Source: Podarcis cretensis (taxonomy: Eukaryota). From it: DNA of 64,000 nucleotides. Made by a program: the position numbers and the translations under genes. How positions within the stretch are numbered: the stretch's first letter is position 1; every line of letters starts with the position of its first letter. The notes under the pieces are model-generated. The model had not been told where the DNA came from and made no database searches. It worked only from the letters and a program-made list of their open reading frames with translations. Below, piece after piece: positions 23,003 to 40,858 of this stretch. The DNA lies in the NCBI GenBank assembly GCA_951804945.1, contig OX638149.1:63364001-63428000 (forward strand). The letters run 5' to 3'.

Positions 23003-24829
23003 TACCACACTAATATATTAAGGGACAGATAGCTACGACCAATGACTAGTGATGGTGGCAATTTGATTGTGCAAAATACTGCTCATGATTAAAACCCCCA
23101 CACACATTTAGCAGAGGAACAGCTTGTAGATATACACATCAGTGAGTGTGTAAGAGGAGCAAAGTGGGTCAGTGAAGTTCACAGAAGAAATGTGCTCATA
23201 AAGTAGGTTTCTATTGGAATCGTATGGAAGAATGCACAGGGAGCTGAAAAGACATTGATGCAGTTAGAAGCTATAATGAAAATAGAATTGCATGATTATA
23301 TGTATATATTACATGAAACTTCTCAGTAACACCTTAGGAAATGTGATTTTGTATATATATATACTGGTAAACATCCTAAAGAAACACAAGGGATGCAAGG
23401 ATGGGATTGTCAGTACACACATCCACTGCAGAATGACTTTCTGGAAATAAATACTCTTAGGGAGTTCAGTGAAAGCAACCAGTTATTTGGAAATTGATTT
23501 AAATTGGTTACAGCTTGAAATGGGGAGTACCAGATGAGTACTAGCACATTGGTCAATACTTTCAGTTGTTATCGGTTGCAACTCAAGTTGTTTTAAACTG
23601 TTTCTAATATTATTTTTAATCCTGGGACTTTAGGTTGAAGGGCAGGTAAGAAAACGATGATGATGATGATGATGATGATGATGATATACAATTAAGCCAC
23701 CATCACCCTCAAAAAGCAAAACAAAATGTATTTTTAAAATAAGGATAATGATGTGTACATACACATATTCTTTCAAGCAATAGGTCTTTATTGGTTCAAA
23801 TGAATGGAGAAGCAACATGCACTGAGGTGAGGATACGAACTAACCTAATCAGATGGTTCAGCACTTGAAAAAATGCAAGAAATACCCTCATATTTTGATG
23901 CTGCATTTTGACCAATAGCGGCATGGAGTGGAACCCTAACATGTCCACAGAATACAGGATTAGCTTATGGGAAATGTCCAATGCTTAGTGAGACCATTAG
24001 TCCATTGAGCTCAGAATTGTCTAAATTGGCTGGCAATGGCATTCCAGTATTTCAGGCAAGCACCTTTCCCTAGCTCTACCGGTCTTCAATATGTCAGAGA
24101 GGTACCAGACAGTCCGTCTGCATGCCAAGTATGTGATCTCTAGCACTGAGCTACAGACTTTCCCCAAGTCATATTCATGCTGACTTGATGTCTTCAGTTT
24201 TAAGCAGTGACTTTCATGTGTGAATGAGCCATCAGAGATCAAAAACCACACAAATGAATACTTTTCATATCATCTCACAGAAGTTTCAAAACGGCTCAAT
24301 TATTTATTTAATTTATTTGCCCACTAGGGCCAGCTGTGATTCATTAAAAACTGGCTAAGCAAGTAATAAGAAACAGAGTTCCAGTATTCCGGACAGAGTG
24401 AAAAATAAACTACAATTCTGTCACAGATCTCTTTAGTTATCTTATTCTAAATTAAAAACTCACAGCCTAGTCAGCTATTCCTCAGGGAGAAAACTCTCCA
24501 ACCCCTTTATTATTGTAATTGGACTTTCCAAGACAGTGGACACCAGATTGTACACCATAACTGTATACAGTATTTAAACAGGTGATCACGCCATAAATTT
24601 ATATATTGTCATTGTCTCTTTCTCTGTATACGTGAGTTCGCAGAAGTGTACTACAAAGTGAGTGAGATGATGTTGCTATATTCTTGCCCAAAGGCCAAGA
24701 GGCAACAGGAGTCAGAGTAACTTAAAGAGCCGTCTTTATTCAGGAACAACATATAAAGAAAACATAGCAGCTTTGATGATACTAGAAGATTAACACACCC
24801 TAAGGGCACAAGATGTTGGACATAACATA

Positions 24830-25405
24830 ATGATGGCTGACTGGGAACAGTTATGGACCACAGGTATGAAATTTATGGCATGTAATGCCCTAAGAGAAAA
24901 CTTAATGAAAATGATTTATAGGTGGTACATGACACCAATCAAGCTTGCAAAAATTTACCATTTGTCCGATAATAAATGTTGGAAATGTAATGAGATTGAA
25001 GGTACATTCTTTCACCTTTGGTGGACATGCCCAAGGATTAAGACATTCTGGGAGATAATTTATAACGAAATGAAAAAGGTATTTAAATATACCTTCCTGA
25101 AGAAACCAGAGGCCTTTCTCCTGGGCATGGTCGGCCAATTGGTGCCAAAGAAGGATAGAACATTTTTCATGTATGCAACAACAGCAGCAAGAATACTCAT
25201 CGCGAAGTATTGGAAGACACAAGATTTACCCACCTGGGAAGAATGGCAGATGAAGTTGATGGACTATATGGAACTGGCGGAAATGACTGGCAGAATCCAA
25301 GACCAGGGAGAAGAGTCGGTGGAAGAAGACTGGAAAAAGTTTAAAGATTATTTACAGAAATACTGTAAAATTAATGAATGTTGGAATGAAGTTATATGGC
25401 TTTAG
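24830..25405 (+). pseudogene. L1 ORF2 C-terminal fragment (cysteine-rich zinc knuckle), frame still open
   Basis: CWKCNEIEGTFFHLWWTC = CX2CX8HX4C; KKPEAFLLG, YATTAARILIAKYWK and W..K..Y.E.A motifs typical of the non-mammalian L1 ORF2 C-terminus; no endonuclease or RT domain in the window. Confidence 0.9.
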
Positions 25406-25744
25406 TAGAAATGTTATAAGGAATTAAGTATAAATAGATTAATAGAGTATCAAAGGAAAAAATAAGGTTAGAATGTGTTAAGATAATTATAGGATAGAAA
25501 ACAGAGAAAGATGGAAAGGAATTGCTGAAACAGTTAACAGAAGTGGAATACAAAAAGGGAGGTGTGAGGAGGTCACGGAAATAAGTGAATGAAAGATATG
25601 ATACTGAAACTATTTGATGTGTTTTAAATTGTGTGGTTTTTTTTGTTTGTTTTGTTAGTTTAAATGTGTTGGTGTTGTGTAGTGTTTTTGTGTTGTATTG
25701 TATTGTTTTTATTTTTTGTAGTGTTTAAATTGTTAATAAATATT

Positions 25745-26644
25745 GGGACTTCCGGGTTAGCGCCTTTGGTAATGGCAGAATTCCTCTGATCGGGAGGAAT
25801 TTACTCCATGGAAACAGGGTCTGGCCGCCACAGCGAAGGCGGAGACCCACTAAAAATCACAGGCAGGAGAAGCCTGTGAACCTGGGATTCGGCTGGCACC
25901 TTTTGCGCCTCCCCTACTCGTGGGGAGACCCGGTTTCGGGGATCTGGAGCGACGTGGGGCGAGCGGCGCAGTGCTTCGAACTGATTGCTTCTTGCACAGA
26001 GTGAAGCCGCACTGCTGTTGCCGGAGAGCGCTGACTTTTTCCTGTGGACAATTCGATTTTAAACAACTACCCATGAGTAGAACGGAAAATTGGATCTATA
26101 AATGTCTTAATTTGGCACCGAAATGGGAAGGTTTTAAACAGGAAGTCCGCCTTCCCCTTTTGTAAATAGATTGAAGCAAAGACGCTGCAAGCTAAGGTCT
26201 TGGAAAGTCTTCCGCAAAGGATTAAACTTCCATCGATTAAAACTATTAAACCCCCCTTGGAAGCAGGAGATTAATGGAATAGTATTAATGGAAAATAAGG
26301 GTAAAAATAAGTTAAGATATTTATATGACAGAAAATAGAGAAAGATGGAAAGGAATTGCTGAAACAATTAATAGAAGTGGAATACGAAAAGGGAGGTGAG
26401 AGGAGGTCGATGAAACAAGGGTATGAAAGATAGACTACTGAAATGGTATAATGTATGTTTTTAAATTGTTTTTGTTTTGTTTTGTTTAGGTTAATGATGT
26501 GTTTTGTATTGTTGATATATTGTATTGTATTGTTTTTTTCCTTTTCTTGTTGTTGTTTTTCTTTTTGTCTTTTTTCTTCTCTTTCCTTTTTGTAAGTTTT
26601 AAAAGTAATAAATATTATTTAAATAAAATAAAATAAAATAAAAA
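25745..26644 (+). mobile_element. Non-autonomous bipartite L1 derivative (5'UTR fused to 3'UTR), 900 bp
   Basis: 20-bp TSD TTAAATTGTTAATAAATATT (25725-25744 / 26645-26664); CpG-rich head GGGACTTCCGGGTTAGCGC; 26335-26450 aligns with the host L1 3'UTR 25500-25610; (AAAAT)n tail. Confidence 0.88.
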
Positions 26645-26859
26645 TTAAATTGTTAATAAATATTATCTAAAAAAATATATAGAAGATTAACACACCCTAA
26701 GCCCAGCTAACTGGATTAAGTAGAAAACCACAGCGATCCAACAAGGAAGGGAGCTTCTATCAAGGCAATCTTGTAAGGCCATAAATATAAGACTCATAGG
26801 TCTACAACTGATTTACAGCCTCTGTCCTAAGAAGTCCTATAATAACTGTTTCCTTATTC

Positions 26860-35978: not shown

Positions 35979-38601
35979 TAATTTTTCAATAATTTGTTTG
36001 CAATGTTTTTAAATGCAGTGTGAAACCCCCAGAGAGCCTCTGCCACATAGTGAGTGAGCTGTATAGGCCAGTGGTCTGCATCCATTGAACAGCTGAACTG
36101 AACTGTTACCGGTATATGCATAGCTACTGTTAGGTATTAATGTTAAACACTATACCGCATAGAGAAAATATCAAGTACCTGAGTTGAACTTTATTTTGTT
36201 CGGCCAACCATGTTTTCCCTTTCCTTTGGCCTTTCAGTTGGAAAAAGCTATTCTGTTGTGAATTTTGAAACAGCTACTTTTATCCAGAAAGAGTTGCATA
36301 AAATTACTCAGTGGAATGATTTTATATTTAGTATTTCTAAATATTCTCGAATATGGATGAAGGAGTTCAGTTATAGAGGGACACATTGTGGGAGATGTTT
36401 GTTTCAGGTATTCAAAAACTTCTTTGCATTATCCCTTTTGCAAAGAGGATTTCACTTCAGATCCTTGCATGTGGAATGCTATTGAGATGCAAAAATATTA
36501 TGAAAAACACCATTATTTTTTAAATGAATTCCTTGCTAATGGCGGGTTTTTTTTTTTTACACAAGGCTACTAAAAGGATGCAAAGCAGCCCATTTATCTC
36601 AAAATTTGCATTTTAATGACACTAGGCAGAAGGGCAGGAAGGCATTAGAAGTTAATTTTAGAATACTGGAGTGGGGGACCCTCTTAGGACTTCGTGCTAC
36701 AATAGAAGAGGCCTGTCATGGTGATAATAATAATAACTACTTGCTTTCATTAATCGTGTCAAAAAGAGAACTATGACACTGATTAATTAATGATTGGCAA
36801 GCCAGTCCTTCCTAATGGAACTCCTCGTTCATCGACAGTACCACTTTGGCTTTTTGTGAACAAGAATCAGCCTTTGATTAATGTATTATCATTTTTCACT
36901 GCTCTCCAAATGAAGCTTTCTTCTCCCGCTACCCCCCAAAGCGGTGCATCTTAGTTACGTTTGTGACAGTAGTGATAGGTTGTGTGAAGAGTTATTTTCA
37001 TGGTTGGCATTCAGGATGATGCAAACCACCATTATAGCAAAGTGTGGCCAGCTCATGTGGTTCAAACAAGTGTTTTTGGTGAAGGGGAAATGCTGGGCTC
37101 ACCCAAGACCCACTGGTTTCAACATGAAAACTACAGGATAATCGTGTACAGATCTCCTGAGAAGTAACCCCCACTGAGTCAACAGGGATTACTTGGAGGT
37201 AAGTGGAATGTGTAAGTATCTCCTGCTGACACCAACCAGATTTGGAGTGCCTGCAACTGAGGACTCATTCCTAATTTCATTTTCATACAGTGACTCCACA
37301 ATTCCCGGTGTTCATTAGTGATAACTTCTATTTGCACCCCTGATGTCTGGCACATGTACTTCCCATGAAAAAATGTTATTTCCCTGTTGCCCAACATTTC
37401 TCTTACTCTGCTTGTTCCAGACAAGAACAGGTTAACTAGCCTGCCATTCATTAACAGTATATGTTGACTCCCTATTCTCTTTTCCTCATTCTCAATGAAG
37501 CCAAAGCAAAAAGCTTGTTATATTTCCCGTTATTTGTTTCTGAAGCTACCACCGTAACGCTGAACTTCTGTGTCATGGGAATATTCAAGTGTACAATTTG
37601 TTCCATTTTCTGGTTTCATCTAATGGAACATTAGTACTGCTGGGTCATCACAATGCAGCTTGAAATATCTTTGTTTTATTCCTTTGATATATTGCCTGTA
37701 TATGTGCATAATTCTAGCATTTCTCGGTCTTGCTCATCCTGTTATTTCACTTGACTATGAAAGTATTTTTGCAACAGGTTGCTTTCCACTTCTCTCTATG
37801 CAATATGTCTGGAGATTTTTCTCAGCTGTGGATCAACTATGGAACATTCCTCATAATGAAATAATAACATTACAGGAGAGTTGTGTGCTGGCTTCTAGCA
37901 TCTCTCTGATTTACATTTATTTATTTATTTTGGTCCCCAGGCTGTTCCCAAGTGGTTTTAGGACTACGAATACCAGTGTGCTTACAGCAGGCACTATTTG
38001 ATTAATGAACAATTATTTTGAGTTAATCATTAGATACTTGCCTATGGGGACTGCCTTAATTAGCTAAATGCAAAGAATTTCCTATCTCTACACAGACAGG
38101 CTGTGATATTTTCTTTCCATAAAACAAAAATAAGATAAAAAGGATGTTAATCATGCTCAGCCGCCTGTTTGAGCAGCTATTCTGCTGGGATTTTTCCTTC
38201 CCAAAGCTCAACATCATTTGTGACTTCATCAGGTCAAGGTATGCAATGTATTAGGGGTCCAAAATATTCTTCATTGACCTAGCAGTCAAAAAATGCATTT
38301 TTAAACTGCTTTTCTACACTGTAGGTAGCAATAGAGATATTTTTATATATAGATCTTGACTTCCATATAGCTAAAAGTGGTCCTGCAATGTCCTGTAACT
38401 GTATCAGTGCCATTCTTAGATGAAACATCTTAGATTTGAACATGAATAGGAAATATGGTAAGTCCTTAAATGTTTGTCCTGCAATGCATGCAGTAGTGTG
38501 GTACCAGGCATACCTCAAAGATATTGTGGATTCGACTCCAGACCACCACAATAAAAGCAAATATCACAATAAAGTGATTCACGTGATATTTTGGGTTTTC
38601 C

Positions 38602-40422
38602 GGACTTCCGGGTTAGCGCGATCCGGTTAATGGCGGAATCGGCTCTGTTGCAGACGGGTCTCACCGCGACGGCGACGCGGGGACCCTTAGAAACCGCAGG
38701 CGCGGAAGCCTGCGGACCTGGTGACTCGGCGGGCACCTAAAGCGCCCCCCGACCCACGAAGAGCCTTTTTAAAGGCTGCGGAGAGGGTACGGGGAGTGGC
38801 GTGGTGCTGTGAGTAGACCGCTACTGCAGTGGAGCGAAGCCGCGAGCCATGGCCGGAGACCGCTGACTTTCTTCCCTGAAATTCGGACTTTAACTAATCC
38901 GTGAGTAGATTGGAATTTGGACTTTAAAAATTTTATCCTTGAATTCGGCACGACCGGGGGATGTGCTAAAGGGAAGTCCGCACCCCCCTGCCTACAGAAA
39001 ATTTAAAGCAAAGATCGGAGAACTAAGGTGGAGAGTTCTTTCTTTGATGTTTTGTAAAAGATAATATTTGCACGAATTTGACAGAAGAAGATTTGTGCTG
39101 GAGAGTAAGAGTGGAATTTTAGAAGTTTTTGTTTAAACCCCCCCAGACCAGGGGGTGTCCTCTATGTGAGCTGGAGAAAAAGGAACGAGGAGTTTGACAG
39201 CTGTCAAAGGAGCTGTCAAACGGGCAGCGAAAGTTAAAAACTTTATTATTTAACACTTTTTTGGACTTAATTTGCTACATTTGAACTAAAGTGGTTGGAA
39301 ACAAAGTAGGGAAATAACAAGGTAAAGGACTATTGGGAAAAGACTATTAAGTAACTAGAATCCCCCTAGGGGAAACATTGAAACATTACAATGGCTGCAG
39401 ATGGAAAATTACAGGCAGAGTTAGAAAGAATGTTTTTTCTTGTGGGAAAACTGCAGGAGCAGACTACGGTGATGAGTAAACAACTTATAACCTTGAACTC
39501 TAAAATAAGCGACTCTGCTGAAGGCACAATGGACTTGACTGGGAAAAAATCTGCAGCTGAATCAGAAGAGATAACTTTGGAACAGGGGGAGAGTGAGCAA
39601 GGGCCAGTACAGATGGAGACTACCAACCACAAGCTTACATTGTTAGAATACAAAGAAGAAGACCCTTGGATTACAAATCTGCGAAAGACGCGAAAGAGGA
39701 GGGAGGAAGCCCCTGGAACATTTGGAATATTTGAATTTAAAAGAAATAAGAAATATGACTGGGGCTTCCTCTTTGAGTATGGATTGGTTGACCTTCTGCA
39801 GCAGCTGGTGTCAAGTACTTTGGATGGAAGAAATTTTGATGAGACCGAGCTGGAACTTCCTCGAAACCCGAGGACCAATGAGGAGAGCTACCAACAAGAT
39901 CGGCAAAGAGAGACTGATAGGGACTTAAAGGCCTCAGATGTGAGGAATCCAGGCTAAAAACTGTTTTTGTGGACGTGGGGACAGTTGGAAGGGACAGAAA
40001 CCGGGGCTGGGGGGGGGGGAGGAGAATCTTTTTTTAAAAAAAATATTTATGACTTTTGTGTTTGATTATTATGATCTATTTTTAAGATAAAAGGGAAATT
40101 CGTGGAAGGAATTCGAGTCGACCTTAGAAAAGCTTTTAATATTTATAAGAAAATTGGATAAGTAAAATCTGGCCAAGTAAAAGGTTTTTTTTAAATATAT
40201 ATATATATAATAATAATATGTAAAGGATGAGAGATATGAATTTGCTGAGTTAATTTAATTGAACTAGGATGTATGAAGGGGGGGTGGGGGGAGGTCAAGA
40301 ACTGGGGTTAGGAAAGTAAGATTATGAAACTTCATACGTGTTGTCTTTGTTTATGTGTGTGTATGTTTGTCTTGATAAAATGTGAAAATTTAATAAAAAA
40401 TTTTTTTTTTTTTAAAAAAAAA
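38602..40422 (+). mobile_element. Full-length non-autonomous L1-type (HAL1-like) retroposon, 1821 bp
   Basis: Perfect 17-bp TSD GATATTTTGGGTTTTCC (38585-38601 / 40423-40439); CpG-rich head GGACTTCCGGGTTAGCGC; a single ORF; G-rich then GT-rich 3'UTR; AATAAA at 40392 and A-tail. Confidence 0.9.
39391..39957 (+). CDS. 188-aa retroposon protein, putative divergent or shortened L1 ORF1-like protein
   Basis: Strong Kozak context ACAATGG; uninterrupted; located where ORF1 would be, after a ~790-bp 5'UTR; heptad-like LQAELERMFFLVGKLQEQTTVMSKQLITLNSKI; basic cluster RKTRKRR; no RT or EN motif. Confidence 0.6.
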   Translation: MAADGKLQAELERMFFLVGKLQEQTTVMSKQLITLNSKISDSAEGTMDLTGKKSAAESEEITLEQGESEQGPVQMETTNHKLTLLEYKEEDPWITNLRKTRKRREEAPGTFGIFEFKRNKKYDWGFLFEYGLVDLLQQLVSSTLDGRNFDETELELPRNPRTNEESYQQDRQRETDRDLKASDVRNPG

Positions 40423-40858
40423 GATATTTTGGGTTTTCCAGTGCATAAAATGTTACATTTACACTATACTATAGTTTATTAAGCCAGGCCCTCTGACTGC
40501 AGGGATGGTGGTGGGGAAACAGCTCCAGCTCTAGCCAGCTCCACTCCCATGGCCAGAAGAGGGGCAACCATGAGGGGCTTTCTTTCCCTGGAAGTGGCCT
40601 GCAATATCTATCTAAAAAAGCTATCTAAGAAAGCAAACACAGCAAAAAGTAGATGGGATTTCCTTGTCAGGAGCCAGCACATTCATAAACTCATGTTAAG
40701 CCACTGTTTGTCTTACATGCAAATGAGGCCAATGGTCCGCATATAATGCAGACCTCATATACCTGTTGCATGAACCTGCACCACATATTAGTTTGCTTGG
40801 AAACTGTTGAGCATCTGTCATGTAACCAACCTGCAGACTTGAGCATGGCTCCTGAGTA

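Follow-up and report, generated by a model that had tools for sequence, protein, structure and literature searches.

The window, i.e. the whole 64,000-nucleotide stretch of DNA analyzed here, contains a 1.82-kb element on the forward strand, the features of which are collected in Table 1. Its 188-aa frame is the sole long ATG ORF within the element and starts in a strong Kozak context (A at -3, G at +4), as the first-pass annotation had described. A second long ORF is absent, and with it the ORF2 endonuclease and reverse transcriptase (RT) that characterize an autonomous L1. The perfect 17-bp target-site duplication (TSD) noted earlier is present on both sides, and the element does interrupt another repeat: the flank is dispersed in the genome (best 40 of 40 scored matches) and is continuous across the TSD in paralogous copies (e.g. 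L306, L309, and L315). This flanking repeat is putatively a Tigger1-like one. The 3' end had been described as AATAAA with an A-tail; both are present, with the tail being 9 A only and a T13 run lying between it and the signal.

The 5' UTR of the element is ~70% identical over 230–350 bp to the 5' UTRs of the full-length L1s L097, L107, L093, and L101, and it probably carries an internal Pol II promoter. A SINE was rejected, i.e. the head is an L1 5' UTR and neither tRNA, 5S, nor 7SL, and no tRNA or Rfam match was found within the element.

Table 1. Features of the element and of its target site, in positions of the window
Feature	Positions	Strand	Remark
5' target-site duplication (17 bp)	38585..38601	+	exact repeat
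L1-derived 5' UTR with CpG-rich start, predicted internal Pol II promoter, and five upstream ATGs	38602..39390	+	
188-aa ORF, an eroded and internally deleted L1 ORF1p	39391..39957	+	
N-terminal heptad helix (~residues 3-40), derived from the N-terminal portion of the coiled coil of ORF1p	39397..39510	+	
C-terminal 12 codons (RDLKASDVRNPG) and stop; most constrained part	39919..39957	+	
3' region from the last ~40 L1 ORF2 codons and the L1 3' UTR	39958..40391	+	traceable via intermediate subfamilies only
AATAAA, T13 run, and 9-A tail	40392..40422	+	AATAAA at 40392-40397
3' target-site duplication (17 bp)	40423..40439	+	exact repeat

Copies, subfamilies, and a non-coding branch

A search of the genome (1.51 Gb, 51 contigs) returned 3079 candidates. 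All of the best 40 span nearly the whole element with 93–100% identity, i.e. the genome holds at least 40 full-length copies. Among 30 fetched copies, 29 have their own exact TSD of 9–23 bp, which confirms independent insertions, and 28 carry the intact 188-aa ORF. Nine related coding subfamilies (S0–S8) form a graded series that leads from the 395-aa L1 ORF1p to the 188-aa protein. A one-off L1 deletion or a chance ORF, in favor of which speaks only the absence of database matches, is refuted by the full-length copies with independent TSDs and by the nine subfamilies, and we give it practically no weight. The element is not single-copy, its ORF is not mostly broken, and overall dN/dS is not near 1.

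Searches that used three Logan homologues and another relative present in the window revealed further subfamilies, which are 1.8–2.2 kb long, have the same 5' end, and carry TSDs. Beyond the genome, homologue searches returned Logan proteins only (6, 11, and 3 in separate searches). Most loci were collected by protein similarity, which favors intact frames, the exceptions being S8 and S0, which came from DNA searches. The codon analyses keep the 101 of 131 loci with a complete ORF and leave out the other 30.

A mismatch-tolerant search finds TSDs in 103 of 129 copies across the nine subfamilies. As the inner TSD bases differ little between pairs (17 of 1347), with no trend among the nine, all subfamilies have recent copies, an age estimate to be read with the bias of best matches towards young copies. 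At insertion targets, A-rich sequence follows pyrimidine, and numerous copies carry an extra 5' G, both of which are expected of L1 priming on capped RNA. Intact L1s are also present in the genome: 2 of the 20 L1 copies fetched (L206 and L207) carry ORF1 and a 1245-aa ORF2. The target sites and these L1s suggest that the element is likely mobilized in trans by L1 ORF2p.

The series includes a non-coding branch. An unselected 800-kb sample contains 2 pieces of the ORF region, both of a broken branch, and copy number is accordingly rough; the same sample yielded L267 (8150–9890), a full-length relative with a broken ORF. Together with L320–L344, this copy forms subfamily SN, with 1600 candidates and 99% identity in the best 40 of 40 scored matches. 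For equal 701-bp queries, SN has 1600 candidates vs 1084 for S8, and SN is younger, with a mean pairwise distance of 1.2% (18 copies with the 5' end) vs 3.5%. All 25 SN copies fetched share the loss of the start codon. A 48-codon frame over the helix remains, and we see no selection on it (pN/pS 1.1–1.35). SN nests within the coding series near S3, and compared with S3 the broken branch has 24 gaps (3 in frame), 5 stops, and a pN/pS of 1.0–1.2, which provides a control without selection. Because SN is young and abundant with a broken ORF, the protein is dispensable for mobility. The first-pass annotation had suggested that the protein may serve to capture ORF2p, a role that is not needed given that SN is the younger subfamily and no less abundant. 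A further broken relative, L271, is older.

A number of minor features concern individual copies. A second family member in the window (25746–26664) is of S0 type and lost its ORF through a private internal deletion; its 20-bp TSD was identified by eye (25725–25744 and 26645–26664), and it sits in the tail of a 5'-truncated L1 (~24805–25744; 22-bp TSD 24783–24804 and 26680–26701). For the S3 copies L051 and L053 (also L201 and L202), 2 of 4 are inserted within the ORF region of older family members, and the target sites of such insertions are similar and purine-rich. L035 and L036, separated by 6.5 kb on C7, do not differ in element or TSD, and represent a segmental duplication, not two insertions. 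Among the S0 copies L174–L184, the coiled coil contains varying numbers of heptad (7-residue) repeats (231, 238, and 245 aa). S3–S8 and SN share a uORF of 32–38 codons (window 38630–38740) that starts ~28 bases into the element, and every coding subfamily checked (S1–S8) has a GT(A/G)AG donor-like site near +300 to +335.

Origin from a host L1 lineage

The copies almost certainly represent a HAL1-type element, which keeps ORF1 only and derives from an L1 of the same host genome. The host is probably a lacertid lizard, since the best matches to its L1 ORF1p carry Podarcis names. The proposal of an RT-less, L1-derived, and multi-copy HAL1-like element is borne out by the copy series and by S0, which is colinear with the L1 copy L101. 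A BLASTP chain connects L1 ORF1p to the 188-aa protein in 8 steps, each with 37–66% identity and E of 1e-38 or better. The direct match is weak (33% over 100 aa, E 1e-4), and a profile match of the 188-aa protein with ORF1p, with the bridging subfamily S0 in the profile, has a probability of 98.3. We collected full-length L1s via an ORF2 fragment in the window. The ORF1p of the host L1 is 395 aa long, and its model comprises a coiled coil (54–168), an RRM (172–262), and a CTD (266–327), and matches human ORF1p structures (Foldseek E 2e-10).

The subfamily S0 (231–245 aa) is colinear with L101 except for three deletions, which remove the first 51 ORF1 codons, 42 RRM codons (strand 3, helix 2, and the start of strand 4), and 3.7 kb. 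Through the 3.7-kb deletion, a Ser-Pro close to where ORF1 ends came to abut the last ~40 ORF2 codons, and this junction created the final Gly-stop. In later subfamilies, 17 CTD codons (the final strand and helix of this domain) are gone along with parts of the coiled coil, and S7 and S8 lost 26 more RRM codons (strand 1 and helix 1). Splicing was rejected as the source of the deletions: 3 of 4 junctions lack GT-AG, and the 5' one is readable as GT-AG with a poor acceptor. No direct protein match was found between L1 ORF2 and the 3' end of the window element; the match is seen only in S0 and an intermediate copy.

The motif RA(S/T)(D/N)R(R/K)SP is found only in one L1 lineage of the host (L101, L107, L205, and L221), the direct progenitor. 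S0 shares 77–82% DNA identity with this lineage over the 5' UTR, the 3' part of ORF1, and the 3' end, and 69–73% over the 5' part of ORF1. The lineage differs from the family in its autonomous structure, with a 395-aa ORF1p and ORF2; among its fetched copies, none has both frames complete, and L205 is the closest. S0 lies near its L1 parent and S8 lies far from it in the ORF, the 3' UTR, and, at about half the pace, the 5' UTR; both have recent copies. One explanation for the divergence of S8 would be serial copy-of-copy replication of a short, promoter-carrying element. In UTR trees rooted on the distant L1s L206 and L211, S0 falls with the L101 lineage and S1–S8 fall outside. Since the deletion junctions are common to all of them, we attribute this placement to long branches, and recombination may also lie behind it. 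In most lizard L1 ORF1p lineages, a variable linker leads to a conserved C-terminal tail that resembles EEQxLGAVGG (L107 C-terminus, alignment A4); the half-L1 family has lost this tail and fixed a different terminus.

The first-pass annotation had seen no clear RRM or CTD in the 188-aa protein, and in-frame deletions have indeed taken out the greater part of the RRM and a portion of the CTD, i.e. the protein lacks the intact RRM and CTD of a functional ORF1p. The AlphaFold2 model of S8 has a pLDDT of 79–92 for residues 1–40 only (mean 52.8) and contains no strands, and a fold search with this low-confidence model returned no match. Searches of Pfam and PDB returned no sequence match to the protein either, which says little because the lizard L1 ORF1p itself has no Pfam ORF1 match. 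An ESM Atlas search of the protein gave no lead (best score 0.79).

HAL1 has been described from mammals (PMC5753468, PMC5322556, PMC3627910), and the classical HAL1 is reported to be explained by ORF1p binding its own message (PMC2241872). According to these sources (PMC5753468, PMC5322556, PMC2241872, PMC3627910), mammalian HAL1, including rat RNHAL1 and guinea-pig HAL1, shows the same loss of ORF2, one ORF1-derived frame, poly(A), TSDs, many copies, and long-kept coding capacity. In the lizard family, ORF2 is likewise deleted, the single ORF is homologous to ORF1p, and copies have poly(A) and TSDs of variable length. By contrast, its host is a reptile, its ORF1 product has about half the length and lacks most of the RRM and part of the CTD, its peak constraint is on a C-terminus made by a deletion junction, and it has a non-coding sister branch; this separation relies on how later papers describe mammalian HAL1, and the elements of Bao and Jurka 2010 may show similar erosion. 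Because the RRM is mostly lost, the usual HAL1 explanation, i.e. RNA binding in cis, cannot apply as such. We found no reptile HAL1 or comparable ORF1 erosion in the openly accessible papers searched.

Selection along the ORF

Codon comparisons indicate that the 188-aa protein is probably selected for function at its ends. The path from S0 to S8 covers ~1.4 substitutions per site, and over this distance the frame stays open from the same start to the same Pro-Gly-stop, with 38.5 stop gains expected on the backbone and 0 present. Of 250 gaps in the UTRs, 50 have a length divisible by 3, whereas gaps in the ORF either keep the frame (17 of 33) or are compensated within 21 nt. Using codon likelihood on 45 sequences, in windows chosen after the alignment was seen, we find a dN/dS of 0.38 for codons 1–24 and 0.59 for codons 25–49. 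Across codons 50–124, values are 0.81, 0.76, and 0.83, and mostly not significant (P = 0.21, 0.046, and 0.39). Constraint then returns in codons 125–154 (0.43) and 155–176 (0.51), and is strongest in the last 12 codons (177–188; dN/dS 0.15, likelihood-ratio test P = 2e-12). The ORF proposed in the first-pass annotation is therefore under selection, with an open frame and constrained ends (dN/dS 0.15–0.59).

Parsimony with CpG sites removed gives 8 non-synonymous changes vs 39.8 expected in the last 12 codons (P = 1e-9), and 16 synonymous changes vs 16.2 expected; by this method, backbone constraint on residues 1–40 is weak (0.84). The stop type varies (TGA, TAA, or TAG) while its position stays after Pro-Gly. 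As the synonymous rate is normal and the stop type switches, constraint is on the peptide and its free end, and not on the RNA. Terminal branches have a dN/dS of 0.58 and tests within single subfamilies are not significant, so the neutral baseline of the method may be below 1. Logan homologues keep both ends, with 8–12 of 12 C-terminal identities vs 24–53% in the middle.

At the N-terminus, the heptad-like pattern noticed earlier is well supported: hydrophobic residues fill 85% of a/d positions vs 21% of the others over residues 7–39, in a count based on 45 related, non-independent sequences. At the C-terminus of the 45 aligned proteins, the final G is present in 44, the preceding P in 43, and the R three before the G in 44. 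A Ser-Pro phosphosite was rejected as the cause of this constraint, S186 being D or N in S5–S8. The basic cluster RKTRKRR, also highlighted by the first-pass annotation, is not conserved, i.e. it is found in 2 of 27 intact copies of the window copy's subfamily, while 25 of 26 in a sister subfamily have RKMRKMK. This rules out a conserved basic cluster or nuclear signal.

Possible roles of a dispensable protein

We consider it somewhat probable that the family is an ORF1-only L1 deletion derivative, likely copied in trans by ORF2p, whose eroded protein likely confers an optional advantage in cis on its own RNA. Because the element is non-autonomous, the main selection would act via effects on its own RNA, and because the RNA-binding fold is lost, the ribosome would be the simplest remaining link in cis. 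A recent preprint reports that ORF1-only RNAs are mobilized only with their own functional ORF1p, that RNA-binding ORF1p mutants do not support mobilization, and that the access of ORF1 RNA to ORF2p is unresolved (bioRxiv 10.1101/2024.05.03.592410). The engineered ORF1mneoI RNAs of that work similarly consist of the L1 5' UTR and ORF1 only and are trans-mobilized by ORF2p, but they reportedly need an RNA-binding-competent ORF1p, whereas the lizard 188-aa protein has no such fold (bioRxiv 10.1101/2024.05.03.592410). With this fold lost and RNA-binding mutants reportedly immobile, RNA binding in cis is closed as a route here. The 188-aa protein is expected to resemble these mutants, which counts against the explanation we favor, as do the five ATGs upstream of the ORF in the leader of the window copy.

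As a tentative mechanism, the protein may act in cis as a nascent-chain tether. When translation reaches the stop codon, the conserved last 12–33 residues would still be inside the exit tunnel, where they would slow release. The middle, loosely constrained and tolerant of length change, would serve as a spacer, and the heptad helix, being exposed, would bind to ORF1p chains or L1 particles and so bring the poly(A) tail close to new ORF2p. The ribosome exit tunnel spans ~30–40 residues, and the constrained terminus (12–33 residues) fits this length. The C-terminus may resemble XBP1u-type arrest sequences. However, known arrest peptides show no match to the 188-aa C-terminus, and degron motifs fit it equally well, which counts against a tether. 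The complete scenario, i.e. an L1 parasite with a gutted ORF1p in which a junction-born, ribosome-slowing C-terminus would hold the coiled-coil helix on its own mRNA and couple it to L1 particles, is a more doubtful proposal.

The C-terminus could instead be a Gly/C-degron, a reading we consider no less doubtful. In that case, the RNA would gain from translation or from a short-lived helix, and the product would be destroyed via a CRL2 ligase, which would remove truncated ORF1p because it would be harmful to the helper L1 or the cell. KLHDC10 is reported to recognize -PG and APPBP2 an Rx(2-4)Gx(0-3) motif (PMC7458402, PMC11568203). The near-invariant G, P, and R match the KLHDC10 -PG and APPBP2 RxxG consensus at a free C-terminus, and a fixed stop position is a requirement of a C-degron. 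Yet constraint reaches at least 33 codons upstream (dN/dS 0.43–0.51, codons 125–176), the invariant A181, S182, and D183 lie outside the minimal motifs, and the retention of the heptad helix is left without explanation. A degron also acts after release, so its benefit would be shared with other copies. The helix is central to the model of the first-pass annotation, in which the released protein joins L1 ORF1p trimers by its coiled coil, as an adaptor that captures ORF2p or as an L1 poison. This helix is the only confidently predicted structure, its register is kept, and it is constrained, and a dominant-negative ORF1p has been proposed for L1TD1 (PMC4161310). We nonetheless find this model unlikely, as peak constraint is at the opposite end (last 12 codons), only the N-terminal coiled coil is helical in the model, with the part beside the RRM at pLDDT <50, and a free protein without an RNA-binding fold has no evident tie to its own RNA. 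Poisoning would, moreover, remove the element's own source of ORF2p.

That the protein has no function of its own, with an open translated frame being favored for RNA stability or ribosome association in a family heading to a non-coding retroposon, appears quite improbable. The middle of the ORF is nearly neutral (dN/dS 0.76–0.83), net charge ranges from +5 to -9 among S1–S8, ORF identity is similar to 3' UTR identity between neighboring subfamilies, and SN spreads without the ORF. None of this accounts for the fivefold deficit of amino-acid changes in the last 12 codons at a normal synonymous rate, or for the same two ends being kept in Logan homologues.

The family provides a natural deletion series of ORF1p that stayed mobile. 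Its stages (full domains, half an RRM, no RRM, and no ORF) are each represented by recent copies within a single genome, and together they illustrate how a LINE can become a non-coding Pol II retroposon. It indicates that HAL1-type elements can keep coding under selection after the RNA-binding fold is lost, and the 12-residue C-terminus is a testable unit. Should the tether be true, it would be a protein-based counterpart of Alu ribosome docking and a new route of trans-mobilization, with a living series in one genome from L1 to half-L1, minimal adaptor, and non-coding retroposon. If the ends are inert, the family would still represent a radiation of HAL1 in a reptile, in which rates of change are strikingly unequal.

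StopGo/2A and other arrest peptides have, like this family, a short C-terminal peptide ending in (N)PG with amino-acid constraint. StopGo/2A was rejected: its core octapeptide (D/G/C/N)(V/I)ExNPGP, as described (PMC12846837), is not matched by SDVRNPG followed by a stop, in which the N occurs only in S6–S8 and the stop follows the Gly. L1TD1 and Bex/Tceal are also ORF1- or HAL1-derived proteins with possible new roles; these are fixed host genes (PMC4161310, PMC8290160), whereas the lizard ORF travels in a mobile multi-copy element. In Podarcis muralis, the annotations P0023 and P0024 describe a TRIM39-like RING/B-box protein in which the RRM and CTD of an L1 ORF1p make up the C-terminal half, i.e. 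either a real TRIM-ORF1 fusion or a gene-model artefact.
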